Source: Halichondria panicea
Lineage: Eukaryota
DNA: 64,000 nt
Reading direction: 5' to 3'
Assembly (NCBI RefSeq): GCF_963675165.1
Contig: NC_087378.1
Location: 270,562 to 334,561, forward strand
Positions 1 to 59,612 of the stretch are shown here, piece after piece (within the stretch, counting starts at the first letter, position 1; each line of letters begins with the position of its first letter). The notes under the pieces are model-generated. The model was given only the letters and a program-made list of their open reading frames with translations, had not been told where the DNA came from and ran no database searches. A program made the position numbers and the translations under genes.

Positions 1-181
1 ATTTCTTGGCCTAATAATTATAGGCTGTATAATTATAGAGACAATAATTATATATCTCTGGGATTATATTAATAATAGGTATGGCTTAGTGAATTATGCT
101 GTTTGGCCATTCTCTGCTGCAATTAAGTGCACTGCAGTCCACTGTACAGCTAGCCACTGCATGTAGAACAGTGTACAGAGC

Positions 182-3100
182 CTATAGTGTGCATGGTACT
201 ATCACTGTATGTTTTCTCGTGGGGTAAAACAGTTCTGCTATAGCTATCTTGTTTCGAGAGGCTGGCCTACCATTGTCTGTGATGGTAACGACGGTTGTCT
301 GGGGGGCCACAAACAGCGCCCCCTGGGGAGGGGGGGACACCAACACTACAGAGAATGACTCAGTAGACTCTGAAGTAGTATCATCTAGGAGGGCCACATT
401 GACACACATCTCAGTGGGGGAGGAGGAGTCAAACACCAATGGGAATGAATCGGCCACAAAGTCAGAGCCAGCTGTAAAAATAAGTGTATGAGCATTAGCA
501 CAGGGAGGAGGTACACTTACCAATTGCTGATCCTGTTTCTTGTGTTGCTATAGTTATTGGTAGACTGATAGCAAGGGCTGGACCACTCACACTCACACAC
601 ACACTCACAAAACTGGTTCCTTCACTCACACTATCGGCAGCCTGAGAGAAGGACACTTGTGCATCTGAGAGAAGGGGGCGGGCATTAAGAGGGTGCGATT
701 AGATTGGGTGTGGTCTTACTGTCAGAGTTGTTGATGATTACTGTTCCCATGGATACACCAAATGTGATTGCATTGCTGGTGCTACTTAGTTCCACTGTGA
801 AGGTCTCGCTACTCTCCACTAGATTGTCTGGTGCTATGGCAATGTTCACACACTGTCTGACGTCAGATGAAGAGAATATCAGGAATTCATTGACACCAGT
901 GTAGTCAGAGCCAAACACTGGAGGGAGGAGAAGGGTTATATAATTATAACAAGACAATTTCGGAAAATTCAACAAGAAATGCAAACGTATCTATCAAGAA
1001 CACTAAAAAACCATGTGCACACAACCTTAAGGTCTTTACCGTTTTTGAACGAAACAAAATTTAAGATGTACATGTACAAATTAAGATTCACAGCCCAAAG
1101 TTAATCTGTCTGGGATACAAGTTACATAATTGTATATCAAAACAGGACCATTAATTTTTGTAAAAATTCCTTACATGCAATATATGGTGGCTATCCCTCA
1201 AAGTGTTTATTAAAGAAAAGGTTAAAAGTTGCAAAAGTTACGAGTTAGTCTTACGTGCAGTAGCGGTCCCGTCCATGGTAGTGAGTTGAACACCAGCTAA
1301 TCCAGTCAACTGTCCTTGAGTAATGGCTGCACACACCATCACAGACCCCTCACTCTCACTTATGATATAGTTGGCCTCCTCTAAGGAGATGGTGGCAGCT
1401 GTGGTGGGGTTGTGTTCAGTGATTGAGCATATAATAAATTATGTAATTAAGCTACTTACATGTGTCATCATCAAGAATGGTAACTGTTCCCATGGATACA
1501 CCAAGTGTGATTGCATCGCTGGTGCTACTTAGTTCCACTGTGAAGGTCTCACTACTCTCCACTAGATTGTCTGATGCTATGGCAATGTTCACACACTGTC
1601 TGACGTCAGATGAAGAGAATATCAGGAATTCAGTGACACCAGTGTAGTCAGAGCCAGACAGTGCAGTGGCAGTTCCGTCCATGGTAGTGAGTTGAACACC
1701 AGCTAATCCAGTCAACTGTCCTTGAGTAATGGCTGCACACACCATCACAGACCCCTCACTCTCACCTACGGTATAGTCGGCCGCCTCCAAGGAGATGGTG
1801 GCAGCTGTGGTGGGGTTGTGTTCAGTGATTGAGCATACAATAAATTATGTAATTAAGCTACTTACATGTGTCATCATCAATAATGGTAACTGTTCCCATG
1901 GATACACCAAGTGTGATGGCATCACTGGCGCTACTTAGTTCCACTACGAAAGTCTCGCTACTCTCCACTAGATTGTCTGGTGCTATAGCAATGTTCACGC
2001 ATTGTCTGGTATTGATGGATGACAGGAATTGAGCAGAGTTGACGGGAGTGTAGTCAGAGCCAGGCGCTAGAGGGGGGTGGATAGTGAGGGTATCATCACC
2101 AGCTACTCCACTTACTAGCTGTTCCAACAACACTAGAGAACTGGAGGGGCAGGAGCACTCCAGGGTCAATTTCTCCATCAGTAATGGCTGCACACACCAT
2201 CAGAGATCCACTATCCTCAGTCACACTGTACACACCCATCTCTAGGGAGACTGTCACGGCTGTGTGTGTGTGTGGGAGGGGGAGGGGAGTGATCACTCAC
2301 CTTATACCAGCAAGAGTTGACTTACTATCATCATTGAGAATGGTGACTGTTGCCATTGAAGCACCCAGTGTGACATCAGGATCAGAGCTAGTCAGTTGCA
2401 GTGTGAAGGTCTCATCATTTTCTACCCGACTGTCTTGAGTGATGCTGATACCACCACACTGTGTCAGACCATTGGCAGTGAACGTGAGAGACATAGTACC
2501 CAGGAAATAGTCACTACCGGCCTCTGTAAGGGAAGGAGGGATTGTGTCAGTCGAGGTGTTTAGTGCATTGCCAGCATCCATCAACTCACCAGCTGTTCCG
2601 TCCGTGGCAGAGAGTTGAACTGACACAGTTTCAGCTGACAACAGCTGTTCACTGGTAATGACTGCACACACCACCAGAGATCCACTATCCTCAGCAACAC
2701 TGTACACATCCATCTCTAGGGAGACTGTCACGGCTGTTGTGGTGGGGTTAGTAATACTGTAGGGTCGTTTATATTGAAGTTGAACTTACTATCATCATCA
2801 ACAATGGTAACTGTTCCCATGGATACACCAAATGTGATTGCATCGCTGGTGCTACTTAGTTCCACTGTGAAGGTCTCGCTACTCTCCACTAGATTGTCTG
2901 ATGCTATGGCAATGTTCACACACTGTCTGACGTCAGATGAAGAGAATATCAGGACTTCAGTGACACCAGTGTAGTCAGAGCCAGACAGTGCAGTGGCAGT
3001 TCCGTCCATGGTAGTGAGTTGAACACCAGCTAATCCAGTCAACTGTCCTTGAGTAATGGCTGCACACACCATCACAGACCCCTCACTCTCACCTATGGTA

Positions 3101-6100
3101 TAGTCGGCCAACTCCAAGGAGATGGTGGCAGCTGTGGTGGGGTTGTGTTCAGTGATTGAGCATACAATAAATTATGTAATTAAGCTACTTACATGTGTCA
3201 TCATCAATAATGGTAACTGTTCCCATGGATACACCAAATGTGATTGCATCGCTGGTGCTACTTAGTTCCACTGTGAAGGTCTCGCTACTCTCCACTAGAT
3301 TGTCTGATGCTATGGCAATGTTCACACACTGTCTGACATCAGATGAAGAGAATATCAGGACTTCAGTGACACCAGTGTAGTCAGAACCAGACAGTGCAGT
3401 GGCAGTTCCGTCCATGGTAGTGAGTTGAACACCAGCTAATCCAGTCAACTGTCCTTGAGTAATGGCTGCACACACCATCACAGACCCCTCACTCTCACCT
3501 ACAGTATAGTCGGCCAACTCCAAGGAGATGGTGGCAGCTGTGGTGGGGTTGTGTTCAGTGATTGAGCATACATAAATTATGTAATTAAGCTACTTACATG
3601 TGTCATCATCAATAATGGTAACTGTTCCCATGGATACACCAAATGTGATTGCATCGCTGGTGCTACTTAGTTCCACTGTGAAGGTCTCGCTACTCTCCAC
3701 TAGATTGTCTGATGCTATGGCAATGTTCACACACTGTCTGACGTCAGATGAAGAGAATATCAGGACTTCAGTGACACCAGTGTAGTCAGAGCCAGACAGT
3801 GCAGTGGCAGTTCCGTCCATGGTAGTGAGTTGAACACCAGCTAATCCAGTCAACTGTCCTTGAGTAATGGCTGCACACACCATCACAGACCCCTCACTCT
3901 CACCTACAGTATAGTCGGCCAACTCCAAGGAGATGGTGGCAGCTGTGGTGGGGTTGTGTTCAGTGATTGAGCATACAATAAATTATGTAATTAAGCTACT
4001 TACATGTGTCATCATCAATAATGGTAACTGTTCCCATGGATACACCAAATGTGATTGCATCGCTGGTGCTACTTAGTTCCACTGTGAAGGTCTCGCTACT
4101 CTCCACTAGATTGTCTGATGCTATGGCAATGTTCACACACTGTCTGACGTCAGATGAAGAGAATATCAGGACTTCAGTGACACCAGTGTAGTCAGAGCCA
4201 GACAGTGCAGTGGCAGTTCCGTCCATGGTAGCGAGTTGAACACCAGCTAATCCAGTCAACTGTCCTTGAGTAATGGCTGCACACACCATCACAGACCCCT
4301 CACTCTCACCTACGGTATAGTCGGCCAACTCCAAGGAGATGGTGGCAGCTGTGGTGGGGTTGTGTTCAGTGATTGAGCATACAATAAATTATGTAATTAA
4401 GCTACTTACATGTGTCATCATCAATAATGGTAACTGTTCCCATGGATACACCAAATGTGATTGCATCGCTGGTGCTACTTAGTTCCACTGTGAAGGTCTC
4501 GCTACTCTCCACTAGATTGTCTGATGCTACGGCAATGTTCACACACTGTCTGACGTCAGATGAAGAGAATATCAGGACTTCAGTGACACCAGTATAGTCA
4601 GAGCCAGACAGTGCAGTGGCAGTTCCGTCCATGGTAGTGAGTTGAACACCAGCTAATCCAGTCAACTGTCCTTGAGTAATGGCTGCACACACCATCACAG
4701 ACCCCTCACTCTCACCTACGGTATAGTCGGCCAACTCCAAGGAGATGGTGGCAGCTGTGGTGGGGTTGTGTTCAGTGATTGAGCATACAATAAATTATGT
4801 AATTAAGCGACTTACTTATACGATCACCATCAAGAATAGTAACTGTTGCCATGGATACACCAAGTGTGACATCATCGCTGGTGCTACGTAGTTCTACTGT
4901 GAAGGTCTCGCTACTCTCCACTAGATTGTCTGATGCTATGGCAATGTTCACACACTGTCTGACGTCAGATGAAGAGAATATCAGGAATTCAGTGACACCA
5001 GTGTAGTCAGAGCCAGACAGTGCAGTGGCAGTTCCGTCCATGGTAGTGAGTTGAACACCAGCTAATCCAGTCAACTGTCCTTGAGTAATGGCTGCACACA
5101 CCATCACAGACCCCTCACTCTCACCTACAGTATAGTCGGCCAACTCCAAGGAGATGGTGGCAGCTGTGGTGGGGTTGTGTTCAGTGATTGAGCATACAAT
5201 AAATTATGTAATTAAGCTACTTACATGTGTCATCATCAATAATGGTAACTGTTCCCATGGATACACCAAATGTGATTGCATCGTTGGTGCTACTTAGTTC
5301 CACTGTGAAGGTCTCGCTACTCTCCACTAGATTGTCTGATGCTATGGCAATGTTCACACACTGTCTGACGTCAGATGAAGAGAATATCAGGACTTCAGTG
5401 ACACCAGTGTAGTCAGAGCCAGACAGTGCAGTGGCAGTTCCGTCCATGGTAGTGAGTTGAACACCAGCTAATCCAGTCAACTGTCCTTGAGTAATGGCTG
5501 CACACACCATCACAGACCCCTCACTCTCACCTACGGTATAGTCGGCCAACTCCAAGGAGATGGTGGCAGCTGTGGTGGGGTTGTGTTCAGTGATTGAGCA
5601 TACAATAAATTATGTAATTAAGCTACTTACATGTGTCATCATCAATAATGGTAACTGTTCCCATGGATACACCAAATGTGATTGCATCGCTGGTGCTACT
5701 TAGTTCCACTGTGAAGGTCTCGCTACTCTCCACTAGATTGTCTGATGCTATGGCAATGTTCACACACTGTCTGACGTCAGATGAAGAGAATATCAGGACT
5801 TCAGTGACACCAGTGTAGTCAGAACCAGACAGTGCAGTGGCAGTTCCGTCCATGGTAGTGAGTTGAACACCAGCTAATCCAGTCAACTGTCCTTGAGTAA
5901 TGGCTGCACACACCATCACAGACCCCTCACTCTCACCTACAGTATAGTCGGCCAACTCCAAGGAGATGGTGGCAGCTGTGGTGGGGTTGTGTTCAGTGAT
6001 TGAGCATACATAAATTATGTAATTAAGCTACTTACATGTGTCATCATCAATAATGGTAACTGTTCCCATGGATACACCAAATGTGATTGCATCGCTGGTG

Positions 6101-9100
6101 CTACTTAGTTCCACTGTGAAGGTCTCGCTACTCTCCACTAGATTGTCTGATGCTATGGCAATGTTCACACACTGTCTGACGTCAGATGAAGAGAATATCA
6201 GGACTTCAGTGACACCAGTGTAGTCAGAGCCAGACAGTGCAGTGGCAGTTCCGTCCATGGTAGTGAGTTGAACACCAGCTAATCCAGTCAACTGTCCTTG
6301 AGTAATGGCTGCACACACCATCACAGACCCCTCACTCTCACCTACAGTATAGTCGGCCAACTCCAAGGAGATGGTGGCAGCTGTGGTGGGGTTGTGTTCA
6401 GTGATTGAGCATACAATAAATTATGTAATTAAGCTACTTACATGTGTCATCATCAATAATGGTAACTGTTCCCATGGATACACCAAATGTGATTGCATCG
6501 CTGGTGCTACTTAGTTCCACTGTGAAGGTCTCGCTACTCTCCACTAGATTGTCTGATGCTATGGCAATGTTCACACACTGTCTGACGTCAGATGAAGAGA
6601 ATATCAGGAATTCAGTGACACCAGTGTAGTCAGAGCCAGACAGTGCAGTGGCAGTTCCGTCCATGGTAGCGAGTTGAACACCAGCTAATCCAGTCAACTG
6701 TCCTTGAGTAATGGCTGCACACACCATCACAGACCCCTCACTCTCACCTACGGTATAGTCGGCCAACTCCAAGGAGATGGTGGCAGCTGTGGTGGGGTTG
6801 TGTTCAGTGATTGAGCATACAATAAATTATGTAATTAAGCTACTTACATGTGTCATCATCAATAATGGTAACTGTTCCCATGGATACACCAAATGTGATT
6901 GCATCGTTGGTGCTACTTAGTTCCACTGTGAAGGTCTCGCTACTCTCCACTAGATTGTCTGATGCTATGGCAATGTTCACACACTGTCTGACGTCAGATG
7001 AAGAGAATATCAGGACTTCAGTGACACCAGTATAGTCAGAGCCAGACAGTGCAGTGGCAGTTCCGTCCATGGTAGTGAGTTGAACACCAGCTAATCCAGT
7101 CAACTGTCCTTGAGTAATGGCTGCACACACCATCACAGACCCCTCACTCTCACCTACGGTATAGTCGGCCAACTCCAAGGAGATGGTGGCAGCTGTGGTG
7201 GGGTTGTGTTCAGTGATTGAGCATACAATAAATTATGTAATTAAGCGACTTACTTATACGATCACCATCAAGAATAGTAACTGTTGCCATGGATACATCA
7301 AGTGTGACATCATCGCTGGTGCTACGTAGTTCCACTGTGAAGGTCTCGCTACTCTCCACTAGATTGTCTGATGCTATGGCAATGTTCACACACTGTCTGA
7401 CGTCAGATGAAGAGAATATCAGAAATTGATTAACACCAGTGTAGTCAGAGCCAGACACTGGAGGGAGGAGAAGGGTTATAAAATCGGGAAGGAAGTGACA
7501 AGAGTAGTCTTACGTGCAGTGGCAGTTCCGTCCATGGTAGTGAGTTGAACACCAGCTAATTCAGCCAACTGTCCTTGAGTAATGGCTGTACACACCATCA
7601 CAGACCCCTCACTCTCACCTACGGTATAGTCGGCCACCTCCAAGGAGATGGTGGCAACTGTGGTGTGATGGGGGGTAGTCAGGCATACAACACACACCAT
7701 AACTTATGCAAATCAGAGTCAGTAACTACAATGGTGGCTATTCACTCACCGTTACTATCAATAATTTCCACTGACACATCTTGTAGGGTCACCGTGACGA
7801 ATGAGTCTCCAGCTGTAATGTGGCCAGTGAAGATTTCAGAGGATTCCAGTAGTTGGTCATCATTGATTGTCACCTCAACATTCTGTATTCCCGGACCACT
7901 AAACTCAATAATCTGTACCGTACCGTCGTAATCATCAGGGGCTGTAATTATAGGTATGATAGCATGAGTGGTGCTGACTCAGCAAGCTGCTGACTTACCT
8001 TCCGCTGAACCATCACGTGTGTAGAAAACAAAGTACGAGGTGAGGGGCTGCACTTGTATGGGATCAGGGAAATCTCCACTGATGCTGACTGATAATACGA
8101 GGGGACCTTCATTCTCCCGGACCCGCACAGAAGAAGCCGTGAAACCAACAGTGATCTCTGGAGGAGCAGTGAATAATTGATCATGACATAATTATATTGT
8201 AATACAGTGGAACCTCCATTAACGACCACCTCCAATTGCAAAGAGCAACCACACGCTATATAACGGCCAAGAGCTCAGGTCCGGATTGAAACTACAATGA
8301 CTTCAATGTAAAGCAACCTTTCAGGAGCGACCACCTCTTTACTCCGCATAACGAGCAGCTTTCTAGTCGGCCCCAACTAGCTTTAGCAACGGAAAATAAC
8401 CTCCAGAATTAGCAGAAAATTATTGCTGAGATAGCATTATTTTGCACAATCGTGAAAACCTGGCTGTAGCTTGTCTCTACAGCCTTTTCAAAGCTTGTAT
8501 GAGCTAAAGAAGCAGTTAGCAAAGCCCCAAGATTCCTTTGCAGCAAGAAATGACTCATAGAAAATACATAGCTGGCAATCGAAACCTCCCAAGGAAGACC
8601 ACCTCTCTATAACGGCCAAAAGGCTGGTCCCCAATGGTGTCCATTTTATGAAGGTTCCACTGTACATGTTTGAACTTATTATTGACTACCTTATTATAAA
8701 CGGGTACTAATTTTAGCAAATTTTAGCGAACTTGTAATTAATGCTAAATTAAGTACCGTACGGGTAGAAAATTTCGAGGTGTTTTTAATTTCGCGTTTTT
8801 CGTGGGTGGCTGCAGAACACGAAAATTAAAACCTATGGAAGGCTTCGTATACGCATGCGAGATAGTGCCACACCCTAACTCCACGAAATTTACTACCCGC
8901 GAAATTTTCCAAATAAGACAGAATATTGAATTGCACGAAAATTTACACCCTCGAAATTTTCCACCTGTACGGTACGCGCTAATAATAAAACGCAATTGAT
9001 AAAAAAATATGTATGTTTTTTTTTCATATACTTTTGTATAATGTAATGTACTTTTGAGAGTATGCTAAGCAAGCTAGCCCTTTCTTTATCTGTATCTGAC

Positions 9101-9279
9101 TCCAAACTTTCCATTCAACCTTAAAACTCATACTTGTACATCTTTTGAGATATAATTATTGTGGTAATGAATTTGCTACAAATCCGCCAAAATTAGTACC
9201 CTAAAAACAGAGAAAAACCTGAAAACGCTAAAATTACTACCCATCTATTAAGGTATTGTATACATAATGTACCATTTTC

Positions 9280-9311
<32 letters not shown>

Positions 9312-11387
9312 AGTGTTTTACCAGGGAAGCAAGAGGCAGTGAGGATGTCCTCACAGCAGTCTCCTCGCTGGAAACAGCCCTGAGAGCACGAGCAGTTGAC
9401 TAGTGCCACGGAGATGACACAGTCAGTGGTGCTGCTCTCTACACAGCAGCCATCGTACACACCACGGCACAAGTCTACAGTATGTCAGACACCATGCGTA
9501 ATAGTGACTCTATAGTTCCTACATCTAACCTGTAGGGAATGCACCACTGCCACTGCCACTGCCACTCCCACTGCCCATAAGCTCTGCACACAGTGACAAA
9601 GAGTGTGAGAATGGAATGCAACACATTAAGCTCATTAGCCTTGTACCAGGCAGAGAAATGCACACACACAACAAACACTCACCACTGCAAGACAAGCCAT
9701 CACCCGTGTAACCAGGCAGACACACACACTCAAAACCAATCGCCATGTCAACACAATTGGCATTAGGGTCACAGTTACTCAGACCTTGCAAGCACTCATC
9801 AACCACTGAAATATAAGGAGGAGACCATTATTATTAGTATGTGGCCATACTAACATAATTATATCCCTCACACCGATGCTTAAACAAACACTGACTAGCT
9901 GCTACGTACTATACTACATCGATAATTAGCACAATTATAATATGTGCGCATGATATATATAAACTCACAGGGTCTCTCTACCGAGGTGCCCACTTCAAAT
10001 ATCCACACTCCTCCAACTCCAACGTTGGTGGTTGTATCAAGCTCCAGGACAGCACCCGTGTTGGAGCCAGGCAAAAAGAACATGTTGGAACCTTCCCCAA
10101 TAAAACCCACGTCAGCTCTGTCCCCCCCGAATCCATTGACCCCACCATCACTATCCCCTGTCATCCATTGTAGGAGGTTGTCTGCATACATCAGGACAGT
10201 GAAGGATCTTACTCCATCAGTGGCCACTATGCACTGGAACGTATTTGTCTGGGGAGGAACAAGAGAGGACAATTATACTTTGCACTGCAAGTAATTGTAT
10301 TTGACAAACCATGCAATACTACCACTCACTAGATCATCATGGTTGTCTTGGTAGCCGACGTAGAACCAGGTGGCAATGAAAGCACTTGAGACAGTAGAGC
10401 TACCAAAGCCGAGGTTGGCTAGTTCGTTGACTCTGTTCAATACTGCAAGCTCTGTAGTCTCTCGATAGAAGACATGTCCAATACTAGTTGTGTCTGCATC
10501 AGCTGAGAAGGCATAGACGGATGCTGAGGTTCCACCACTGCTGACCAACTCCAACACACCATCAGTGTGCACCTATGCATGGGATTAGGGGGTAGGGCAA
10601 CACAAGAGAGGTAATATGTGCAGTGGGGGGGGGGGGGGGGGGGGATTGCAGTGCATGCATTAAAGAGGTAGTGAGTGCAGGGGGGTTAGTATGCGGGCCA
10701 GGCAGTGCAGGACAACACACAATGTGGGAGAGGTAATGGAGAGACAATCATTGCCTGGTACTGAGGTAGTACAGTGTAGGGTGCATGGTGACTGGTACAA
10801 GTGTCCACATGACAACACCATATACAGTCCAACTATCTCTGCTATGTGGGTGATCATAATTATCAATACAAACATTGGATTGCATTCTGCAAACTGAGGC
10901 TAAAGATGGAAAGCGATGCGAGCACCACTCACGCACACACACACTACTCCCAGGCCTTCCTTTTATTGCTGATTTAGTCTAGCTGAGTATCTATCTATAG
11001 AAGGCAGCAAAAAACAAAAAGACGACATGAGGCAGCAATCAACTTATTGTGACATGCAAGAACAGAAGAAAGAGCCTGTGTAGCCACCACACACACACAC
11101 ACATGCATACACACATATATACTACAGGCAATACACCACTCACTCACACACACACACACAGAGGCTACAGATAATGCACGTACTGTAATAGTCTCCCGCT
11201 GCAGTCCTAGGAATGGAATATTGGCCGCTAAATTCACAGAAGCTGATACATCATTTCCTCGCTGCAACTCAGTGTCTCCAGAGTCGGGGCCAAATGGCAG
11301 GAACATGGGGAGAGGTATCGCCCACACAGTCTGGAGGGCCGTCAGACATAGTAACAAAACTCTCACTGACACCATAACCTCCACCAT
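182..11387 (-). CDS. Multi-exon gene for a secreted NIDO / cbEGF / SMB-like / Calx-beta (at least 20 copies) protein; the 3' end probably runs off the window start. Exon 1 is ~11196-11387. NIDO exons are ~10322-10567 and ~9960-10250. The cbEGF exon is ~9690-9806 and the SMB-like exon ~9300-9462. Divergent Calx-beta exons lie at ~7950-8160 and ~7745-7930, the near-identical array at 720-7700, and a further Calx-beta exon at ~243-523.
   Basis: Minus-strand translations: exon 1 MVEVMVSVRVLLLCLTALQTVWAIPLPMFLPFGPDSGDTELQRGNDVSASVNLAANIPFLGLQRETIT has a signal peptide followed by the NIDO N-terminal motif. ...HTDGVLELVSS...AFIATWFYVGYQDN and ...NTFQCIVATDGVRSFTVLMYADNLLQW are NIDO-like. VVDECLQGLSNCDPNANCVDMAIGFECVCLPGYTGDGLSCS is a calcium-binding EGF domain. 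CSCSQGCFQRGDCCEDILTASC matches the somatomedin-B cysteine pattern. The repeated ...ADYTVGESEGSVMVCAAITQGQL...SSETFTVELSSTSDAITFGVSMGTVTIIDDD is a Calx-beta domain. Every exon is bounded by GT...AG with a consistent phase (DDDT then one extra nt, then GTAAGT). Confidence 0.6.
1260..7700 (-). repeat. Tandem array of about 15 near-identical units of ~405-406 bp, each unit being one Calx-beta exon (~339 bp, 113 codons, phase-preserving) plus one ~66 bp GT-AG intron. More divergent units lie at 1858-2731 and 7745-8160.
   Basis: ORF track shows 112-aa MELADYTVGESEGSVMVCAAITQGQLTGLAGVQLTTMDGTATALSGSDYTGVTEVLIFSSSDVRQCVNIAIASDNLVESSETFTVELSSTSDAITFGVSMGTVTIIDDDTCK repeating at 3185, 3590, 3996, 4402, 5217, 5623, 6028, 6434 and 6840, with a period of 405-406 bp. 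The intron sequence gtaagtagcttaattacataatttattgtatgctcaatcactgaacacaaccccaccacag is itself conserved. A handful of diagnostic substitutions (LATMDG, STND, ELRSTSDDVTL...ILDGDR) are shared between non-adjacent units. Confidence 0.9.
8198..8657. mobile_element. MITE-like non-autonomous TIR element in an intron of the Calx-beta gene. TIRs are TACAGTGGAACCT / AGGTTCCACTGTA, flanked by TA, as in Stowaway/Tc1-mariner-derived elements.
   Basis: ...gtaaTACAGTGGAACCTCC... at ~8198 and ...gaAGGTTCCACTGTAcatg at ~8645-8657. Internal direct repeats accacctc...taacggccaa. No ORF. Confidence 0.45.
8756..8975. mobile_element. Second MITE-like element with ~25-bp TIRs, TACCGTACGGGTAGAAAATTTCGAGG / CCTCGAAATTTTCCACCTGTACGGTA. 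It belongs to a dispersed TACCGTA-ended repeat family.
   Basis: Terminal inverted repeats read directly at 8756-8782 and 8950-8975. Related TACCGTA(T/C)ACG...GAAAATT ends occur at ~12672, ~43776, ~44097 and ~46327. Confidence 0.4.
9285..9311. repeat. (TG)n microsatellite in an intron.
   Basis: tgtgtgtg... run. Confidence 0.9.
10625..10645. repeat. Poly-G homopolymer (~21 nt).
   Basis: cagtggggggggggggggggggggattg. Confidence 0.9.
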
Positions 11388-12037: not shown

Positions 12038-27471
<15,434 letters not shown>

Positions 27472-27862: not shown

Positions 27863-29167
27863 TTACTGAACAATGTTTCTAATAGTTCCTATTTCATCAA
27901 TCTCACACTCGACCACATCTCCTTTCTGTACGTGTGTGTGTGCAAAACCAATAATAATAAATTTAAATTATTATTAATGAATATACAATTCTACCTTAAG
28001 ATAAAGCGGAGGTTTTCTGAAACAGCCTACTCCAGGGGGGGTCCCAGTAAGCACCACATCACCCGGTTCTAGGGTCATGAACCTTGAGAAGGGGGGGGGG
28101 GCAGTGTATAGTAAAATAGTAGCAGATAGCAAACGTACCTGGAGAGAAAGGTGACTAGCCCTTGTGTTTTGTGGACTAGTTGGTTAGTGTTAGAGTTCTG
28201 GACAGTCTCCCCATTCAGTCTGCAGCGTATACCCAGGTTATGGGGGTCTGTGGGCCAGAGGGGATGATGATAGAACCATGAGTGAGAGTGCTCACCAGAG
28301 AGAGAGGGTGTGGTCACAATGGCTGGACCAAGAGGGGAGAAGGTGTCAAAGGTCTTCCCAATGAGCCACTGTCCTCCATTCCTGTGCAGCTGCCAGTCTC
28401 GAGCACTCACGTCATGAGCAACCATGTAGCCTGCAACATGAGACATGGCCTCACTCTCCTGCATAAGCAGCTCACATGAGCTGTGTGGTAACAAGGGTGG
28501 TGTGTGGGTGGGTACTGACCTTGATGTTCTTGCCACGCTTGCACACAATAAAGGCCATCTCCACTTCATAATCCAGACACTATAAGATGTATGCAATAAT
28601 TAATTAAAACGTTTGAACTTGGCTCCAACCTTTGTCTCATCAGAGAGCAGAATAAAGCCATTAGGCTCCGTGATGGTGGAGGCAAACTTGTTGAAGATGA
28701 CAGGCTCCTTTGGAACAGGAACGTTTTGTTCAGTACAATGGTCAATGTAGTTCAGACCGACGCAGATCAACTTCTGGGGGTCGTAGATGGGGGCTTGGAG
28801 TTCAAAGGTCCCTGGCTGGAGGGTGTGGTCAGTTGGAGCAGCCTCCGCTACCCTGCACAGTGAGAATATTAAAGGACAAATTATATTTAATATGGCTATA
28901 AAAAAAAAGGCGAGTGTGTTTGTGTGTATACACAAACACACTCGCGCCTAACCAGAATAGCTACGCCAGGCCATTGTACCTTGCTGCTGCTGGTGCACTG
29001 GTGTCCCACTGCTGCAGGAAGGTCTTCATATCCTTGGGGATGGTGGGGTCCACAGCAGTCACATCCACCACACACCCACCATTCACCAGCTCCACACCCA
29101 CACGCCTACACCCCTCACCACTAGCACCACCCTCACAGAACTGCACCAGACGAAGCTTCACATCCAT
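27863..29167 (-). CDS. FAHD2: Fumarylacetoacetate hydrolase domain-containing protein (FAHD1/FAHD2-like), ~5 exons.
   Basis: [10 protein letters not shown]...[116 protein letters not shown]...[77 protein letters not shown]. Colinear with vertebrate FAHD2. Confidence 0.8.
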
Positions 29168-29370: not shown

Positions 29371-32300
29371 ATGAGCGAAAAGAAGATAGTGGGGATCCTG
29401 CCCAACAACTATGTCCATGTACTGGACCTGGTGAGTGCTGTTTGTGTTTGCATTCAACATGTGTGTGTGTGTGTTTGTGGCTCTGATCAGTACATGAACT
29501 GAGTAGGTGGCCTTACAAGTGTACTGTACATGTACTACACACTACCGTCTCCCTCACAGACAACCAACATTACGACACTGGAGGTGGGCCCAGCGAACCT
29601 CATGCTGCGTGACAACCAGAAGTTGGTGGCCGGGCCGCACCCCTTTGTCAAGGTACCCCCAGGCTATTACTGCATTGTCAAGAACCCCATTGACCCAACG
29701 TAAGAATCATTCGATTAACTTTTGAGTGGTGATTAAACTTTATGTTTTCTGTAGTAAGCCATTACAAGATGGAAAGCTGTTTGAGCCGAGATTTGGTCAT
29801 CAGGAGGTCCGACTGCATGGAGTAAGTTACCCCCCCCCCTCCCTCTCAGTGTTAGCATTGTTTAACCACACCCCTCAGGAGCCCTTCCCGCTCTACCCCG
29901 GGGAAAGCCTAGAGGGAGGAACTCTTGCTGGTGAGTCTATACATGGTGATTGTACATTTCAATGACCCTCCCCCTCTTCTGCCAGACTACAAGGGAGCAG
30001 TTCGCCAGCTGCCTGTGTTGAGAGCTTGTCATGGTCTGCACTTGAGGGCACTGGTGGATATAGAGGCTGATGGAGAGATGAGGCGATGTGGTGATGAATG
30101 GCAGCTCAAGGGACCTGTCACTTATATCCCTAATCCTGATGTGGTATGTACTCTTAGAAAGCTAACCCTCCTAACATTCACAAAGTGTCTGCTTTCATGT
30201 ATAAGTTACAGCTCGTGATTACTTGATCCCCACTCAGCACAGTATAGCTATCAGTTTACACTGTCTCCATTCTTACTACAGGAGATTGTCAGGAACATGA
30301 GTCCCCAGGTGATTGCGGGTGGCAATGCTCTGAGGCTGAAAGCCAGACAAGAACTAGTGGACAAGGATGGTGCTCCACGCTTCACTGGAGAGGAGTGGCT
30401 TGTGAGGGATGTGGGGGCGTACCTGCCTGGTGTCATGGAAGAGGTACAACTAGCATACTAGTAATATTGTCTGTGAAGCTTGTGCTACATGTATTCCCCA
30501 GACCTAGTAATAATTGCTGGCCTAGGTTGATTCTAATACCAATTACTGAGTTTATACAGACCCTCCCCCTCCCTCCAGGTGGTTGGTATGGTCGATGCTT
30601 ACACAATGACTTCTCAAGTAGCACTGCACATTTTGGCCACTGACAACTTTACTGACCAGTTTGGGGTCAAAAGGTGTGTCTGTACTTGTATTGTGGGTGT
30701 GGTTTAAGTGTGTGCGTGTACAGGCACATTGGAGACGAGTGGTTGGTCACCAGCGAACAGTGCGAGTCTTATATCCCTGACATCACTGAGGTACGCACAC
30801 GTCCACACACACACCCTCACACCTTACACACCTCACAGGATATGAAACGTGTGGTGAACCTGACGGTGCTCAAGTCCCACCAATATGCAGTGGTGCTGGA
30901 CCCAGTGGGACAAGACAATAAGAACACACTTGGTTGCAGAGAGTTGCGTGTCGGACCAACCACTTTCTTCCTGCACCCAGGTAACACAAACTAGGCCACC
31001 CACCACAACACAGCCATATTAACTGAGCATTATCTGCTGTAGGTGAGAGACTGGAGACTGGCATCAAGAACTCTATGATCCTCCAAGCTGACGAAGCCGT
31101 CGTTGTCACAGCACACGACGAGTTTGTCGACACTCTACCGAATGGTGCGTTTGTTCAATTTCAATTGTGTGTGTCTGTGTGTTACTTGGATGTACGCACT
31201 GCTACAGGCAAGACTGTTCAGCGTGGCCCTGGTGACAAGTGGATGATCCATGGACCCACTGAGTTCATACCCAAAACAGAGATTGGCAAGTTTGAGAGGA
31301 GGAAGACGATCCCCCTCAATGAGAATGAGGGAGTGTATGTACGAGACATTCAGTCTGGTCAGGTTCGCTGTGTCCATGGACCTCAGGCGTACATGATACA
31401 GGCCAATGAGGAGCTGTATGAGAAGGAGCTCACCCCACTAGTGGAGGACTTGCTCAGGTACACTACCATCACTCTGTGTTACCTTGTGGTGTGTATGTGG
31501 CCAATGGCCCATTGTGTTCGTATGTACTGCATTGTTAGTACTTCCTTTGTTTTGTGTAAAGTAGCTTTTCCTTTCCATGCAGACATGGTGGTGGTATTGG
31601 AGATGCCTCCATTAGAAAGCTCTCCTATTTTGATGGCTCTGTTGACCCCAAGTACCAGGTTGGTATCCACTAGCCAGGATGGTTCTGTTATTTATTGTAA
31701 TTTTAACCCCTCCAGTCCCGAGACCGTACTCGAGTGATTACATACCGTTGTCCTAGCAACACGGCAGTGCAAGTATACAACTACCTCAAGAAGACGGCTA
31801 GAGTTGTGTTTGGTCCTGACCTGGTCATCCTCGGCCCTCACGAGACATTCAACGTCCTCTTCCTCAGCGGTCAGTGAGTGGGGAATAAGATTCTCAACTT
31901 GTTTTTTTTAGTGCCCCTAACTTTAGCCTGGAGCGTATAACTTGATTGCATGTGTGCTATGTGTACTGTACAGTAGTGTGATGTGTTGCTTGCTGTGTAA
32001 ATCAATCATAGCTTTCAGGCCCAACTTTCCATTTTATGAAAGAAAAAGGCTAGATGAATTTGGACCTGTTATTGAGAGACCATAACTAATGTCCAACTTC
32101 ATAGCTAAAGATTATAACTCTTGGGCAATCTTTTCCCATTTTCTGGTTGCTTTTTCTGAATTGTGTTGTTTGTTGTATTATATGATTTTTTTTGTCTCTT
32201 GTAGCTGGCAAGCCCAAGAAACAAGGAGCTCTCATCTCCATCTGTATCATGCTTGGGCCAGACTTTATCTCAGACACTATCGTCGTGGAAACATCGGACC

Positions 32301-34542
32301 ATGCTCGACTCAAAGTAGCCATCTCAATGAACAACGTCTTCAGAGTATGTGTAATATCCCAACTCAACCGTGTGTGTGTGTTGGTCTTATAGTGTATGAA
32401 ACGTACACTCTTTCCCACTGTTTGTTAATGACTGTGTGTGTCCTCCCCCTGTGTGCAGTTTGAGAAGGGCAATGCAGAGTCTGAGGCACAACTGTTCTCT
32501 GTGCCTGACTTTATCGGGTTCGCTTGTCGTGAAGTGGCCAGTAAGATACGTGCCTCTGTGGCCTCACTACCATTTGAGCAGTTCCACAAGTACTCGAATG
32601 ACATCATCCGTGCTGGAGTGTTTGGCAAGAGTGAGGAGGGGGAACTGAAAGAAGAGCTGATCTTCAATGCCAATAACCTGGTGAGCCCTCATTTACTAGT
32701 CGCCCTCTATATAAACCCTCCTGGGGAGATCTCAGTTACTAGTCGCCCTCTATATAACCCTCCTGATGAGATCTCAGTCACTAGCCGCCTCTATATGAAC
32801 CTTCCTGATAACTGTGTATACATAGACTGTGTTTCTATGTTTTCTCGTATGATAATTTTCTGATGTGTTGGGATAGAGTGTGCGGACTGATGTTGTCAAC
32901 AAAACATGTTTACTCTCCCCTCAAGCCACAATAGTGTGGCCACTTGCTGACAGCTGTTGGTGTTCATTAAAATTCAATATTTGAACAAGGGTGTTCCTAT
33001 TCATGAGCAGTGTTGTGGACATTTAGTGATCCCATTGTTGTATTGTGTTTAGGTGATCACCAACATTGATGTCCAGAGCATAGAACCAGTGGACCAACAC
33101 ATGAGAGACAGTCTCATGAAATCTGTGCAGATGGCCATTGAGATATCTACCAAGTAAGCTCAGCTATCCATTACATACTGTCTCCCCATCTAATAATTAG
33201 TTATGTGGTTATGTGTGGCAAATTGCAATTAGCAATGCCTCTATTGTAGTGTACATGTTCATGCACAATGTGCTTCTCATGTACACTGACCACGGCTTGT
33301 GTCAACATGTGTATCTATGTGCCCCCTAAGTGACTCTACCACCATTACTCTCTTACACAGCTCTATTGAGCGGTTTGCCCAGCACGAGGCCAAGAGGACA
33401 GAGCAGAAGGCTAGAGGAGAGTTAGAGCGTCAGAAGCTAAATAATGAGAAGGAGGCAGAGGAAGCTCGCCACTTGCTGTTGAAGCTACAAGCTGTGGCAT
33501 CTGCAGTGGAGTCCTCTGGACAAGCCAAGGCTGAGGCCCAGGCTCATGCTCAGAGGCTACTCATTGAGGGACAGAGTGCTATTGAGTGTGAGTGAGGTAG
33601 TGTGAACCTTGGAGCTTCCACTCTGACTCAGTACAAGGGCATAGTGCATGAATACAGGGACTAGTCATTGTGACAATGCTGTACTGATTGTGTGGTCGAT
33701 TGTCTCGCTGGACTACTACATGTTGATAAGCAAATGTGGTCATGTTCTCATTAGTGTATTATTTATCACGCTATGACCATTGCTGGCTTCCATGTTTCAC
33801 TCATAATTATTTGCAATTTTAGGCCATTGTGTGCTTTGGTGGGTGTGTTTAGAAAATAAACTAAATGTCCTTATCCCCCTTCCCAGTGGCTGAGTTGAGA
33901 GCTGAGGCTGCTCGAGTGGAGAATGAGGCAGAGTTGAGCTGCCAGTCTCAGGCCAGAGAGGCTGAGGTGTCCTTTATCAGGGAGCAGAACCAACTGGAGA
34001 TAGCCAAGGCCAAGGAACTCAGTGACATTGAAGTAAGGAGTAATTAATAAGTCAGGGTACTGAATTTACAGCTGCTTGTAATTGTCTTAGTGGTAATCGG
34101 TTGTTAATTACATAATGATTGTGGGCGTCTGTTAGACCATTGACTGTGTGTGTGTGTGTTTTGTGCAGGTGGGCAAGTTCTCTAAGATGGTAAGTGCTGT
34201 GAGCAAGCAGACCATTGCCCGCATTGCCATGGCTGGCCCAGAGGCTAAGGTGAGAGCATCCAACCATGACTTCCTCTGAGATTATACAGCTCATGTTTAC
34301 TATTAGACTTAGTACTGCACTATCATTTTGTGGAGATCAAAGCATACAGACTTTATATCAACAATATACATACATACAACATGCAGTCAATCACACCTGT
34401 ACACATACACACACACACACACCCTCAGCTCAAGATGCTACAAGCCCTAGGCATTCAGAATGTTCTCATCACTGATGGCAAGAGCCCGGTCAACTTGTTC
34501 CAGTCCCCTCAAGGCATCACGCAAATGCCCGGACACTACTGA
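29371..34542 (+). CDS. MVP: Major vault protein, ~20 exons.
   Basis: Exon translations: [20 protein letters not shown]|[46 protein letters not shown]|...[14 protein letters not shown]...|[53 protein letters not shown]|[54 protein letters not shown]. Then [94 protein letters not shown] and [46 protein letters not shown]. Then the shoulder and cap-helix exons, ending in [37 protein letters not shown]. Colinear with vertebrate MVP repeat structure. Confidence 0.9.
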
Positions 34543-35325: not shown

Positions 35326-37853
35326 ATGTCTTCGATGGAAGTCGACATTCCGCAGCAAGTAAATAGCTACAAATACTCTCCACCGACCAACGGTCATCAT
35401 GTACATTTCGATACTGAGATCAAGGTTGTGAAGCTCGCCGCCACAAGCACAGCACCGCAGCAACGTCCCAAACACAAGTCTCGTAGGAGAGCCCGCGTTC
35501 CTAACCTTGAGCTGGAAGACGATGAGATGTCTGGTGTGAGCAGCACAGGCAAGCCCCCTTCCCCGTCCAAACTAAAGAAGATGGCTGACAAGGACCGTCA
35601 TTCTCGCTCTGGCCGCAGGGGAAATCCTAAGAAAGGTGAGGGTTGTTGATGTAAGGACACCTTGAATTGTATTTTGACTTGCTGCAGTAATGTCTGACCA
35701 TAGATGGTTGTGTTTTGTGTGGGTGCTGTAATGGTGATTGCCAAGTCATGTGTGTGTGCCTACTGTACAGGGGTGTAAGCTATTGATAGTCTCAGCTGGT
35801 AATCCCATTGTATAGGTGTAATCTAGCGTCAGTTGACACCTCGAGTGGCAAATAGAGATACCTGTTATGATTGCCATTGGACACCCATTAGCAAACTTGC
35901 ATGTTTACTGCATTGTCAGCACTGATAATGCATGGTCAACATGGTGCAATGATTACGCTTGATTGTTGCCAATGTGCTGATGTTGTGCTGATGCCATTGT
36001 TGTGTTGTGTGTGCCACAGTTTGCAGGTGTGCTGTGAGGTAGAACTTTAGGTTACTGGTTACCTTTGAGAATTGAATTTTTGAGTGCTGGGTTAAATTCA
36101 TTAGCCAGCTGCACCCAGTTCTATCTAATGATATTCATTTGTCATTTGAACTAGTGTGGCAGATTAATTAGTCCCTTGGTTGTTGTTTTAGAGCTTCTCA
36201 CATTATCTGCACCCGATGAATGCCGGTGTTGTTTACTGCTAAATCCCGTTAAACTGGTTTGTCCAGATTTCTATCTGATAATTCCTTTGTGGGCTGACCA
36301 CCATCACAAAGATCTCACTTCCCTTGTTTACATGTCTTATGTTTATCAACAACAATTGTCTTTTCTCAGGTGGTGCTGGTGGCAAGGGCACATGGGGCAG
36401 TATCACTGATCAGATGTATGCTGACTCAACAACACAGGATACTCATGACCCCAACTACAGCTCTGAGGATAATGATGAAGTAAGCAGTCCTATACAGTGA
36501 CAAAGGACAAGGTGTTGATTGCTGTGATTATCTCCCTTGCAGACCACATATCTTGTGAGCAGCCCAACATCCCCTCAATTGAGCAGTGAGGAGTTTGAAA
36601 AGACAGCCACTGAAATATTCCTCGAGTACTTTGATCATGGTGATACTGGAGAGGTGGCCAACACTCTAACAGGGCTTTCCATTAAGAACAACAAGCATGA
36701 GGTGGGTTCTAAACATGTTGAATGTTGTGCATGGCTATACTGCTATATACCTCCAGGTTATTCGTGTGGTTGTGAGCTTGGCTCTGGAGGAGAAAGATTC
36801 CAATCGCGAGAAGGTCTCTGTACTCATTTCTGACTTATATGGACAAGTTGTGAACGGCCGTGAGGTGGCCAAAGGCTTTGAATTGGTTCTGTCTCAACTG
36901 GATGACCTCTCTCTGGACACTCCTGATGCTGCCACTGTAGTGGGCAACTTTATGGCTCGCTGTGTGGCTGACGATTGTCTACCTCCGGCCTTTGTCTCTA
37001 ACTACCCTAAAGTTGACAACAAGAACACTTTGTAAGTGTAATGTTATTGTGCTACTTCAGTGTTGTCATCCTCCCCCTCCCTACAGTGATGCCATGAAAA
37101 GGGCCAAGCTCCTGCTGAGTATGAAACACAGCATTGCTCGCCTGGACAATGTGTGGGGAGTGGGCGGAGGTCAAAGGCCTGTCATGTTCCTCATCAACAA
37201 GGTAATTAATGATTATAATTATTCCATCAACCCTCCCTTATTATTATATTATTCTGTACAGATGAACCTCCTGCTCAAAGAGTACCTCTCCTCTGGTGAC
37301 TGTGTTGAGGCTATCCGCTGTCTCAGAGAGTTAGAGGTGCCCCACTTCCATCATGAGCTAGTCTATGAGGCCATTGTAATGGTCATGGAGAATGCTACTG
37401 AAGCTTGTGCTGAGATGATGACTGATCTTCTCCTGTACATGTATCAGACTGGCATCATTTCCTCTGATCAGCTCACCACTGTGAGTTTTTGCACGTCTTT
37501 TTTCCAGCAATGTTTATGAATGCATGCCGTTTTTTTTGCAGGGATTTATGCGTGTGTTTAGTGATATCACTGACATTGTGTTGGATATTCCCAATGCTTA
37601 CCACACTCTCAACAAGTTTGTGGATCGTGGAGTGGCTGCTGGTTTTGTGTCTCCCCAGCTTGCCATTGAGAGCCCCTCCAGGTATGCAGGTCAATAGCTG
37701 GTTCTGCCTTATAATTAATTGTATGGCTTAAGCTTATTAATTTCCTAGTTTTCTTTTCTTGTAGTCACTGTGTCTGTTGTTTCTTTGTGCAGGGGCCGTA
37801 AGCGCTACGTGAGTGAGGGAGATGGTGGTGCTATCAAAGAGCCAGAAGATTAA
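35326..37853 (+). CDS. PDCD4: Programmed cell death protein 4 (two MA3 domains), ~9 exons.
   Basis: ...KKG|GGAGGKGTWGSITDQ...DPNYSSEDNDE. First MA3 domain: EEFEKTATEIFLEYFDHGDTGEVANTLTGLSIKNNKHEVIRVVVSLALEEKDSNREKVSVLISDLYGQVVNGREVAKGFELVLSQLDDLSLDTPDAATVVGNFMARCVADDCLPPAFV. Second MA3 domain: MNLLLKEYLSSGDCVEAIRCLRELEVPHFHHELVYEAIVMVMEN...GFMRVFSDITDIVLDIPNAYHTLNKFVDRGVAAGFVSPQL. C-terminal GRKRYVSEGDGGAIKEPED*. The match to human PDCD4 is very close. Confidence 0.85.
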
Positions 37854-54298: not shown

Positions 54299-54441
54299 GT
54301 TGTATATTCAGCATAAGGTGGGGAAAGGTCCTCAAAAAAACTAACTGTCTCGAAGGGAAGCCGCGGAATGCCTTTGTGTACCTATGAGAGGGGTGGGGCT
54401 GCTTGGTGGTCAAGAAGCTTTCTAGCCCCTTACAACAAGTG

Positions 54442-57429: not shown

Positions 57430-59612
57430 ATGGGTATTAACCTAAGTCAAAGCAAGCAAACAGGTAAGTGTCCCCTATATACTAAGTGTTGGTACCTGGT
57501 GCTGCATGATCTCACTCTCCAAGGCTTCATTGACGAGAGTGGAGAATACAACCAGGAGTGTTGGCATGAGTGGGTGCTGTATCACAAATCCAAGTCACTA
57601 CCTGCCTCGTTGGATCGTGGGTCAAGTACTCTCAATGAATTTGAAAGGCTATCTAGCAAATCTGAGCCGCCTACAATAAAACGTAAGAAAGCTCCAACTT
57701 TTACAATTGGTCCTGCTACCAACAACTCGCCAGAAAGTGACTCCGACAAAGAGTTAGAACCACACATTCTTAATGGTGAGATTCTCCGCATTTTTTTGCA
57801 TGATTATTCTAAGTATACACCATTTTTGCAGGCGTATACTGCATACAGAAACCAGATGTGATTGATATTACATCAGCAGGGGCAATGTATCCAACAGTTA
57901 AAGATCAAAAAACAGCCTTTGGTGTCAATTTTGAGGTTCCCAAAGGAGCTGTTCCGACCGATGCTGCTACATCGTTAGAAGTGGCTGTTTGTCTCAGTAT
58001 CGGTTCGAGCCAATACCCAGAGGACACCACTCCCATCTCCCCCATCCTCCAGCTACATCCCAAAGAAAACTTCAAGCTCCTGCAGCCGATCACTGTCACC
58101 ATGCCACACATACTCTCTGAGCCCTCTGATATAGGAGTCATGAAAGCTGTGACCACGGAGGACCGGTTTGAGAAAATCGATACAGAAATTACTCTTGGGA
58201 ATAAAGATGGACATGGAACAGCTACTTTCCGTTTGGAGCACTTCTGCTACATACAGCTGTACACTAAACTAACACCCGATACAACAAAAACAATTCGCTA
58301 TTGTATTTTTCCAGTTCTACCCAGGAAGGTTCCCTTTGATGGGTCGTTTATGCTGTACTTCTGCATAAGTTATCATATGAAAGAATGTCGTGAGGTAAGT
58401 ACACTCTAATTATGTATACTGACTCCTTGAGCTAGTGTTTCTGTACGTACAGGCAATTGAAGATCAGTGTAAGAATATAGCAAAGCTCAAGGAGCATGGC
58501 CATGAACTTGTAGAGGACAAGCTTCAACCGTTTTTGTTCAAGCCTGAAGCCAATAGCATCAGTGCTACCTGTACTAGACCCAAACAGAAATCAGGTTGGG
58601 AGTGGAGAAATCTCAACGGAGAAAGAGGAGTGAGTTTAGTATATTATACAAGTCATGTGCTTTTATTGTTACATAATTATGCTAGTGTACAATGAAGTTG
58701 ATTGTACATGTATGCTTCCCCAGATTGTAACAGAATCAGTCAAACCATGGAGCATGGACCCTGCTAATCTGAAGGATGAAGCTAACAGATTTCTCTATCC
58801 CCCCAGCTTTAAGGTAGAGGTACGGGGCTCCGGAAACAGAACAAGTCAAGATGAAATCGTTATGAATTTCTCTGGAAATACCGAGACACCTCTTCCAGAT
58901 ATTGGTTTTTACCTACCAGGTAGTATAGGGTGTGTCATGACTGACATTGATGCTTTGATTGCCTTAGGGAATAATGCTGCCTTGAATCTAGGAGACCATG
59001 ACAAATCGCATCTGTCGTTAGGTGGGACAAGTTGCATATGCTCTATTATTGTAATTAGCTCCAATTCATCCAGGTTCAACTGTATACGACTCAGCTACGT
59101 GTACCACACAAGAATCAGTTCTTAGGACTAATTATGAGGACATCATCTCAATGGTTTCACAAGATACGCAGGGTGTTGCTGACAGCCTGTTCTCCAAAAG
59201 GCTTATCGAAACACCAATCCGAGATGACGTGAGGGATGATCGCAGAGGTTCCAACAGAGACAGGGCAAGAAAAATTGTGGACAACATATTTGATAGGATT
59301 AAAGGAAAACATATCAATTACGAGCAATTTCGTACCTTTTTGGACATTCTTGCTTCTCAAAGTCAAGAAAACAGCCAGAAAATAAAAGAAATACTTGGTA
59401 ACTTGTAATTAACGTGCATTTGCTTAATTTTGTGTATCAATACAGATTCGGATAGAGAGAATTTGAGTCCCACGATTGAAACCGACGATCTAGCCAGCTC
59501 TTTAGATTCAGTGTTTGAATTTGAGGCCCCTCCTTCTACATCTGACATTCCCGGGTCCAGTGGTAGCAGTGACAGTGAAGAAACTCATCGTCGTATCACT
59601 CAAGGACAATAA
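57430..59612 (+). CDS. Gene F. It has an MG-start micro-exon (MGINLSQSKQT, 57430-57463), a linker exon, a ZU5 domain and UPA-like region (57830-58396), further exons, and a C-terminal death-fold (DD/CARD-like) domain.
   Basis: ZU5: AFGVNFEVPKGAVPTDAATSLEVAVCLSIGSSQYPEDTTPISPILQLHPKENFKLLQPITVTMPHILSEPSDIGVMKAV. UPA-like: GTATFRLEHFCYIQLYTKLTPDTTKTIRYCIFPVLPRKVPFDGSFMLYFCISYH. Death-fold: SQDTQGVADSLFSKRLIETPIRDDVRDDRRGSNRDRARKIVDNIFDRIKGKHINYEQFRTFLDILASQSQENSQKIKEIL. Stop at 59610-59612. Confidence 0.6.

Follow-up and report, generated by a model that had tools for sequence, protein, structure and literature searches.

The locus described here lies on the minus strand of a 64,000-nucleotide stretch of Halichondria panicea DNA (NCBI RefSeq assembly GCF_963675165.1, contig NC_087378.1, positions 270,562 to 334,561 of the forward strand; this whole stretch is the window below). 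It raises the question whether one gene joins a NIDO domain, an EGF domain, a somatomedin-B (SMB)-like cysteine module and a long array of Calx-beta domains in a single protein and, if so, what such a protein might do. An earlier interpretation made from the letters alone (the sequence-only reading) had proposed such a gene at 182-11387. The answer that we favour, with a probability of roughly 0.6, is one large gene for a secreted, strongly acidic matrix or adhesion protein, for which service as a calcium-stiffened rod is the most likely role.

The exons of the window join into a single gene

The minus strand of the window was read directly, together with its open reading frames (ORFs) in three frames, and the exons were then joined by script. 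In total, 30 exons between 11387 and 271 on the minus strand join without an in-frame stop. The peptides quoted in the sequence-only reading were recovered on this strand by ORF listing and three-frame reading, and the consistent GT-AG introns in one orientation that it described were found at 29 of the 29 introns within the window. Introns 1 and 2 are in phase 0 and the later introns in phase 1; the exons after exon 3 are all of the phase 1-1 type. Most introns in the window measure 49-100 nt, with a typical length of about 61 nt. The segments in the window are listed in the order of the gene.

11184-11387, minus strand: exon 1, with the ATG, a signal-peptide-like segment (MVEVMVSVRVLLLCLTALQTVWA, then IP; hydrophobicity checked) and the pre-NIDO part FLPFGPDSGD...FLGLQRETIT; ends in phase 0, donor GTACGT
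10330-10572, minus strand: exon 2, first half of NIDO (Pfam NIDO E 7.9e-10 for the exon alone)
9969-10248, minus strand: exon 3, second half of NIDO (TNTFQCIVATDG...; Pfam NIDO E 5.8e-22); ends in phase 1
9683-9805, minus strand: exon 4, one EGF domain, likely of the calcium-binding type (phase 1-1; EGF_3 E 1.5e-9; EGF_CA borderline)
9530-9583, minus strand: probable mini-exon ELMGSGSGSGSGSGAFPT of 54 nt, a Ser-Gly linker (phase 1-1, in frame, flanking AG and GT)
9322-9474, minus strand: 10-Cys SMB-like exon, containing CSCSQGCFQRGDCCED (RGD codons at 9367-9359)
8158-9321, minus strand: long intron of 1,164 nt that separates the SMB-like exon from the start of the Calx-beta exons; carries a (TG)n microsatellite and repeat-like sequence
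7750-8157, minus strand: Calx-beta 1, divergent, in two exons (8157-7999, 7941-7750)
7254-7657, minus strand: Calx-beta 2, in two exons (7657-7514, 7457-7254) with an internal phase-1 intron
2790-7192, minus strand: Calx-beta 3 to 13, eleven single-exon units (exon of 342-348 nt plus intron of 60-61 nt, period 405-409 bp)
2326-2733, minus strand: Calx-beta 14, divergent (exons 2733-2590, 2523-2326; 66-nt internal intron)
1866-2259, minus strand: Calx-beta 15 (exons 2259-2116, 2066-1866)
1460-1804, minus strand: Calx-beta 16, array-type single exon
720-1398, minus strand: Calx-beta 17 (exons 1398-1255, 917-720, with a 337-nt intron between them)
271-664, minus strand: Calx-beta 18, divergent, the last coding sequence in the window (exons 664-521, 471-271; donor G/GTAGGC)
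1-270, minus strand: first 270 nt of a 362-nt intron, beyond which the gene continues with 13 more exons on the contig L003

Homologues assembled elsewhere bear on whether the head and the array belong together; in the word-indexed searches, the N-terminal query gave 2 proteins and the C-terminal query 1 protein. P0016, a 637-residue uninterrupted ORF on a 2.0-kb contig of the ENA/Logan assemblies (contigs L005 and L006), carries a signal peptide, NIDO, EGF, a GSG linker, a 10-Cys module, three Calx-beta domains, a transmembrane helix and a short tail. Because two independent assemblies of this contig have almost equal ends, it is most simply a transcript. Its N-terminal order is identical to that of the gene described here, at 39% identity in NIDO; it differs in having only three Calx-beta domains, a transmembrane helix, LGD at the site of the RGD and an ordinary number of lysines (17). 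L001, a Tara contig, carries within 1.9 kb the NIDO exons, the Cys module together with an SG repeat, and then exons for Calx-beta; it has no EGF, and the intron after exon 2 has its equivalent in this homologue (P0001/L001). On L007, at about 73% identity, the head is present from the signal peptide through NIDO, EGF and an SG linker to the Cys module, and on L004 Calx-beta exons are followed by a C-terminus equivalent to that of the gene here. Because independent homologues keep an equivalent domain order, the single-gene reading is well supported, and the proposal of one co-oriented gene with NIDO, EGF, an SMB-like Cys knot and a long Calx-beta array holds, P0016, L001 and L007 having the same order.

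An additional domain inside the 1,164-nt intron was considered and rejected; none is expected there because the homologues pass directly from the Cys module to Calx-beta. As a separate observation, L007 carries at 4110-4454 (minus strand, opposite to the gene), downstream of the Cys-module exon, a secreted Cys-rich ORF of 114 residues (MQLMKLLLALAALLGATCAQRCPDKVEC...), which may sit inside the counterpart of the long intron.

The gene extends beyond the window and encodes an acidic protein predicted to be secreted

Through two window ORFs that have exact copies in the protein library (P0013 and P0074), an independent 431-kb ENA contig was reached, ctg15267_138.93x_l. The corresponding sequences L002 and L003, from the same species, share 99.6-99.9% identity with the window except in the array, every exon being intact in them, and the coordinates are related by window x = L003 x+9752. 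At base 271, the end of coding in the window, there is a donor, and the 362-nt intron that follows crosses the window edge. Beyond it, L003 adds 13 exons, all phase 1, for Calx-beta 19-23 (five Pfam stretches) and 184 further residues up to a TGA at L003 6097-6095. The whole gene thus has 43 exons, 30 of them in the window, over about 21 kb, and its introns are in phase 1 in 40 of 42 cases and in phase 0 in the other two. The stop at 97-99 and the ORF end at 182 were both considered as the 3' end of the gene and rejected in view of the conserved downstream exons on L003. Of the span 182-11387, the start at the ATG 11387 stands, while 182 is merely the stop of a read-through ORF and coding in the window ends at 271.

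The conceptual protein, joined from window 271-11387 and L003 6095-9660, has 3,193 residues, a mass of about 328 kDa before modification and an isoelectric point (pI) of 4.05, with 426 Asp and Glu residues against 56 Lys and Arg. The exons of the window account for roughly the N-terminal three-quarters of it. Past the signal peptide it contains no hydrophobic segment that could serve as a membrane anchor (maximum Kyte-Doolittle value 1.87 compared with 3.1 for the transmembrane helix of P0016), and therefore it is predicted to be secreted and not membrane-anchored. Its 184-residue C-terminus, which we read as a pair of small beta-rich modules, is conserved on L004, with 64% identity and an end at the equivalent stop.

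The protein contains 2 lysines and 55 arginines in its 3,193 residues, and the homologous exons of L007 encode zero lysines. As a special feature this scarcity is partly deflated, given that long Calx-beta proteins are poor in lysine (median 1.1% among 120 matches); it is the extreme of a general Calx-beta trend and not unique.

The N-terminal head

NIDO (PF06119) is recognised well above the curated cutoff in the joined model: over exons 10572-10330 and 10248-9969 it scores 124.8 bits against a cutoff of 25 (E 5e-36; profile positions 30-185 of 186), confirming the domain that had been named from the letters. Exon 3 is 60-82% identical to many metagenomic exon fragments. A HMMER search of the full protein library with the NIDO region gave 1,940 relatives, and among the best 150 of these only P0016 also carries Calx-beta. 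The segment that precedes NIDO, from the ATG at 11387, resembles a signal peptide as had been proposed, a judgement made by inspection only.

The EGF exon scores 38.3-42.3 bits for EGF_3 against a Pfam cutoff of 28.5. For EGF_CA it is borderline, with 28.2 bits for the exon by itself and 23.6-25.9 in context, the cutoff being 27. By inspection, the pattern CVDMAIGFECVC fits the Asx-hydroxylation consensus C-x-D-x4-F-x-C-x-C, and the N-terminal calcium-site motif, L-V-D-E-C, is a partial match only to D-x-D/N-E-C. Thus, one EGF domain with a hydroxylation pattern is found where a calcium-binding EGF had been claimed, but its calcium-binding character is supported only in part by family score and N-terminal motif.

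The domain list of the sequence-only reading agrees with ours in NIDO, EGF, Cys module and Calx-beta, and overlooked the probable 54-nt Ser-Gly mini-exon at 9583-9530. This exon gives a weak Pfam Serglycin match. We kept it in the model because an SG or GSG linker occupies the equivalent place in all three homologues, L001, L007 and P0016. The linker may be an attachment site for a glycosaminoglycan chain.

The cysteine module and its RGD

The module contains ten cysteines, all of which are conserved in L001 and P0016. Somatomedin_B (PF01033) is the only Pfam family that it matches, at best with 16.5 bits against a cutoff of 23.1 and over profile positions 16-32, i.e. the C-terminal half only; the same family is also the only match for the modules of the three homologues. 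In a PDB sequence search, all eight matches at E <=10 are SMB domains (E 0.08-6), among them those of ENPP3, vitronectin, SUSD2 and snake venom phosphodiesterase. An AlphaFold2 (AF2) single-sequence model of the module had a mean confidence (pLDDT) of 46.5 and was unusable. With the SMB domains of vitronectin, ENPP1-3 and SUSD2, the module has in common the C-terminal cysteine pattern C-x-C-x3-C-x5-CC-x-D-x(4-5)-C; it differs in having 10 cysteines instead of 8 and in its N-terminal half. By sequence similarity, we conclude that it is an SMB-like variant below the curated family threshold. The likeness to somatomedin-B that had been claimed is therefore borne out as the sole Pfam and PDB similarity, at sub-threshold scores and with 10 cysteines rather than the 8 described.

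The module contains the sole RGD of the 3,193-residue protein, directly before the CC pair, and its RGDCC is identical to and aligned with that of ENPP3 SMB1. The sequence-only reading had instead matched this RGD to that of vitronectin. In the alignment, vitronectin residues 9-44 span the module, and the vitronectin RGD is located after its SMB domain; because the RGD here precedes the CC pair, the proposed match of position fails, and the position is that of ENPP3 SMB1. Among the homologues the site reads ERGD in L007, SLNN in L001 and FLGD in P0016. A role of the RGD in cell attachment is possible, though weakly supported.

The Calx-beta array differs in unit number between two assemblies

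Calx-beta (PF03160) gives 18 matched stretches in the window-encoded part (E = 0), so that the array is real but in the window falls short of the 20 or more domains that had been counted; the totals for the whole gene are 23 Calx-beta domains with the window's array and 20 with that of the second assembly. Units 3-13 (7192-2790) are single exons of about 345 nt with 96-100% mutual identity, introns included, and Tandem Repeats Finder (TRF) reports 11.5 copies at 97% identity. The unit spacing 406, 405, 406, 406, 409, 406 recurs, indicating a six-unit higher-order repeat. In the window there are 11 such units and in the ENA contig 8 (L002 14272-17461, L003 12484-15673); the three missing units fall within the second copy of the six-unit repeat, and both versions remain in frame. 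This difference is either a real length polymorphism or a difference between assemblies. Moreover, the Calx-beta domains keep the usual acidic motifs, i.e. E-x-x-G near the start, DGTA, xSDY, D..E..E.F and a terminal DDD.

Calx-beta 2 (7254-7657) and 17 (720-1398) have an internal phase-1 intron at ...TATA/LSGSDY..., which is missing from units 3-13 and 16, at most 93% identical to these two. The intron-less array units point to recent intron loss or to the spread of an intron-less copy.

A proposed secreted rod and the alternatives to it

From the predicted order of signal peptide, NIDO, EGF, Ser-Gly linker, 10-Cys SMB-like knot, a rod of 23 Calx-beta domains and the 184-residue C-terminus, the following mechanism suggests itself. 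The Calx-beta domains would probably bind calcium and stiffen into a long rod, as in the Calx-beta arms of sponge aggregation factors (AFs); calcium binding is proposed because the usual acidic motifs are retained. Such a rod would separate the NIDO/EGF/SMB-like head from the C-terminal module, and each end might bind a different partner in the matrix or on the cell surface. Given near-identical exon-plus-intron units of 406 bp, all of phase 1-1, unequal crossing-over could alter the length of the rod while keeping the frame. The extracellular matrix or aggregation protein that the sequence-only reading envisaged is plausible.

Several observations weigh against this account. The gene model is predicted from DNA; the mini-exon at 9583-9530 has a weak donor (GTTAGA), and the 66-nt intron in Calx-beta 14 would read through in frame and could be retained. 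The copy number of 11 compared with 8 may partly reflect assembly error. For the 184 residues at the C-terminus there is no match in Pfam or among PDB sequences, a PDB profile search with them giving chance matches only. The nearest named NIDO relatives, at about 35-44% identity, are scattered across animals, including vertebrates and nematodes, and comprise SNED1, alpha-tectorin, mucin-4-like and similar proteins. With a 930-residue Calx-beta query, the top 120 homologues are of a generic kind, most of them bacterial arrays with about 30% identity.

Two of the alternatives turn on the gene model and on the RGD. Two neighbouring genes, one for a small NIDO/EGF/Cys protein and one for a Calx-beta polyprotein, might have been joined, or the array might have been inflated by mis-assembly, and the length of the intron before Calx-beta 1, far above that of the others, would fit such an error, as would the DNA-only model and the unequal copy number. 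However, the Calx-beta part lacks its own start codon and signal peptide and begins in phase 1, the Cys module is joined directly to Calx-beta in three homologues, once in an uninterrupted ORF, and the array is present and in frame in both assemblies; we consider an artefact very improbable. If, on the other hand, the protein were chiefly an integrin ligand, the RGD of the SMB-like knot would mediate attachment and the Calx-beta rod would be a spacer. The placing of the RGD directly before the CC pair, as in ENPP3 SMB1 and ENPP2 SMB2 (PMC8808174), and its retention as ERGD in L007 favour this, but it is replaced in L001 and P0016, it adjoins two disulphide-bonded cysteines and may be unexposed, and the tripeptide, although the only one, is fairly common by chance in a protein of this length. 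Moreover, ENPP2 SMB2 also has an RGD and, according to structural work, its integrin binding seems to use other residues (PMC8808174, a review). We regard a chiefly integrin-binding role as quite unlikely.

The protein could also be a true member of the demosponge AF family, acting in cell aggregation and self/non-self recognition, with repeat-number polymorphism adding individuality. In Amphimedon and Xestospongia the introns of AF genes are nearly all of phase 1, those of Xestospongia averaging 62 bp, and the genes contain near-identical repeats with introns included (PMC5400394, Grice et al.); AF components have a low pI (PMC11670116). The gene here has the AF-type signal peptide, long Calx-beta array and extreme phase-1 bias, with introns of a length seen in the Amphimedon (AqAF) and Xestospongia genes; its product is very acidic, and its unit number differs between the two assemblies. 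Furthermore, a 2024 proteomics study found an uncharacterised NIDO + calx-beta protein to be abundant in Clathria AF preparations (PMC11670116), so that the combination, which the sequence-only reading took to be undescribed, had already been reported; this protein co-purifies only in part with the AF, having fallen to 0.5% after size-exclusion chromatography (PMC11670116). Yet AF membership is defined by a C-terminal Wreath domain (Group 1) or by a top match to a known AF (PMC5400394, Grice et al. 2017). The C-terminus here, with its two small modules, is roughly half the size of the described Wreath, and no AF-named protein is found among the best 120 Calx-beta homologues, most of which are unnamed entries in a ranking that sums scores over domains, so that a Group 2 match is lacking. 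Nor is there a tandem AF gene cluster at the locus, which is flanked by SMC3, by unrelated mucin-like transmembrane ORFs and by a beta-TrCP gene, and there is no sign of hyper-polymorphism because the two haplotypes differ by less than 0.5% outside the array. Altogether, membership of the AF family seems unlikely.

A further reading, which we consider improbable, concerns the C-terminus. Several AF-associated proteins of Clathria, including Calx-beta and nidogen-like/EGF ones, have in common a conserved C-terminal 'AF-interacting region' of Ig and Fn3 (PMC11670116). If the C-terminus here were its counterpart, the locus would be the first complete genomic structure of a NIDO + Calx-beta component of the AF system, with a rod that would differ in length from one individual to another in steps of complete exon-plus-intron units, and with a head of NIDO, proteoglycan-type linker and RGD-bearing SMB-like module that would be able to engage cell-surface receptors. 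The resemblance between the two regions is one of position, size and the presence of two beta-rich modules.

Genomic neighbourhood

An SMC3-like gene lies directly upstream (window 12038-26824, minus strand) and ends about 650 nt before the ATG of the gene; it has the signature motif, the SMC hinge and the SMC_N region. The gene appears to extend across a gap of about 10 kb (15.7-25.7 kb) where other genes lie on the opposite strand. Within this apparent gap, on the plus strand, are two paralogous ORFs in tandem without introns (17584-19473 and 21648-23433), one of 629 residues and the other split by a frameshift into 249 + 388. Their products are multi-pass membrane proteins whose N-terminus is rich in cysteine, and neither has a Pfam match. 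A long minisatellite with a 30-nt period occupies 23564-24513 and is open in two frames (MLIYTYCCF... repeats). Further along the window, paralogous ZU5 ORFs at 57858-58409 and 61789-62370 (plus strand; E 5e-6 and 7e-8), each followed by further similar ORFs, suggest a tandem pair of ZU5-containing genes. The other neighbours in the window, listed here, are of ordinary animal type.

28075-28941, minus strand: FAA-hydrolase-domain protein
29925-33595, plus strand: major vault protein
36537-37519, plus strand: MA3-domain (PDCD4-like) protein
54403-57114, plus strand: BRCT-containing family-X DNA polymerase-like gene

With about 12 genes per 64 kb the genome is compact; the GC content of the window is about 44%, and Rfam and tRNA scans of the window were empty. 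The gene density, the introns of about 60 nt, this GC content, the animal-type neighbours and the parallels with published AF genes would all fit a demosponge. Past the left edge of the window, two plus-strand ORFs (L003 3077-3871 and 4191-4658) run towards the 3' end of the gene and encode Thr-rich mucin-like repeats followed by a transmembrane helix. Next after them is a beta-TrCP-like gene at L003 803-1369 (minus strand).

Significance and comparison with known systems

In sponges, cells adhere and recognise self by means of huge Calx-beta proteins with poorly known partners. The locus gives a complete, hand-checked gene structure for a kind of protein known in sponges only as a proteomics entry, gives evidence for conservation of the head architecture across several species, and is a clear case of an in-frame difference in repeat number between two assemblies. 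It also provides a variant 10-Cys SMB-like module and a conserved C-terminal module, both without an above-threshold match to a known family. The domains are all known and the pairing of NIDO with Calx-beta had been reported before, so that for specialists the locus is a useful annotation rather than a surprise.

Among known systems, the Clathria NIDO + calx-beta protein equally pairs NIDO with Calx-beta, is secreted and was obtained from an extracellular fraction in which acidic Calx-beta proteins abound, a comparison drawn from a one-sentence description. MAFp4/MAFp3 of Clathria and AqAFA-E of Amphimedon resemble the protein here in their signal peptide, tens of Calx-beta domains and low pI. 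AF genes likewise have phase-1 exon modules, short introns and near-identical intron-containing repeats, and some AFs contain EGF. The gene here differs from them in its NIDO head and in lying outside an AF gene cluster, and it apparently has no Wreath domain. Moreover, AqAF Calx-beta domains follow a three-exon pattern, while those here have one or two exons, and the 184-residue C-terminus is shorter than the Wreath model (about 285-360 residues).

Outside the AFs, SNED1, nidogen, alpha-tectorin and mucin-4 likewise have an N-terminal NIDO after the signal peptide, often followed by EGF. However, these bilaterian NIDO proteins continue with Sushi/FN3, nidogen G2, VWD/ZP or AMOP, and none with a Calx-beta array. 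FRAS1/FREM (ECM3), which the literature links to MAFp4, also place extracellular Calx-beta repeats in a large matrix protein, but they have only about five of them, together with CSPG repeats and, in FRAS1, furin and VWC, and they have no NIDO.

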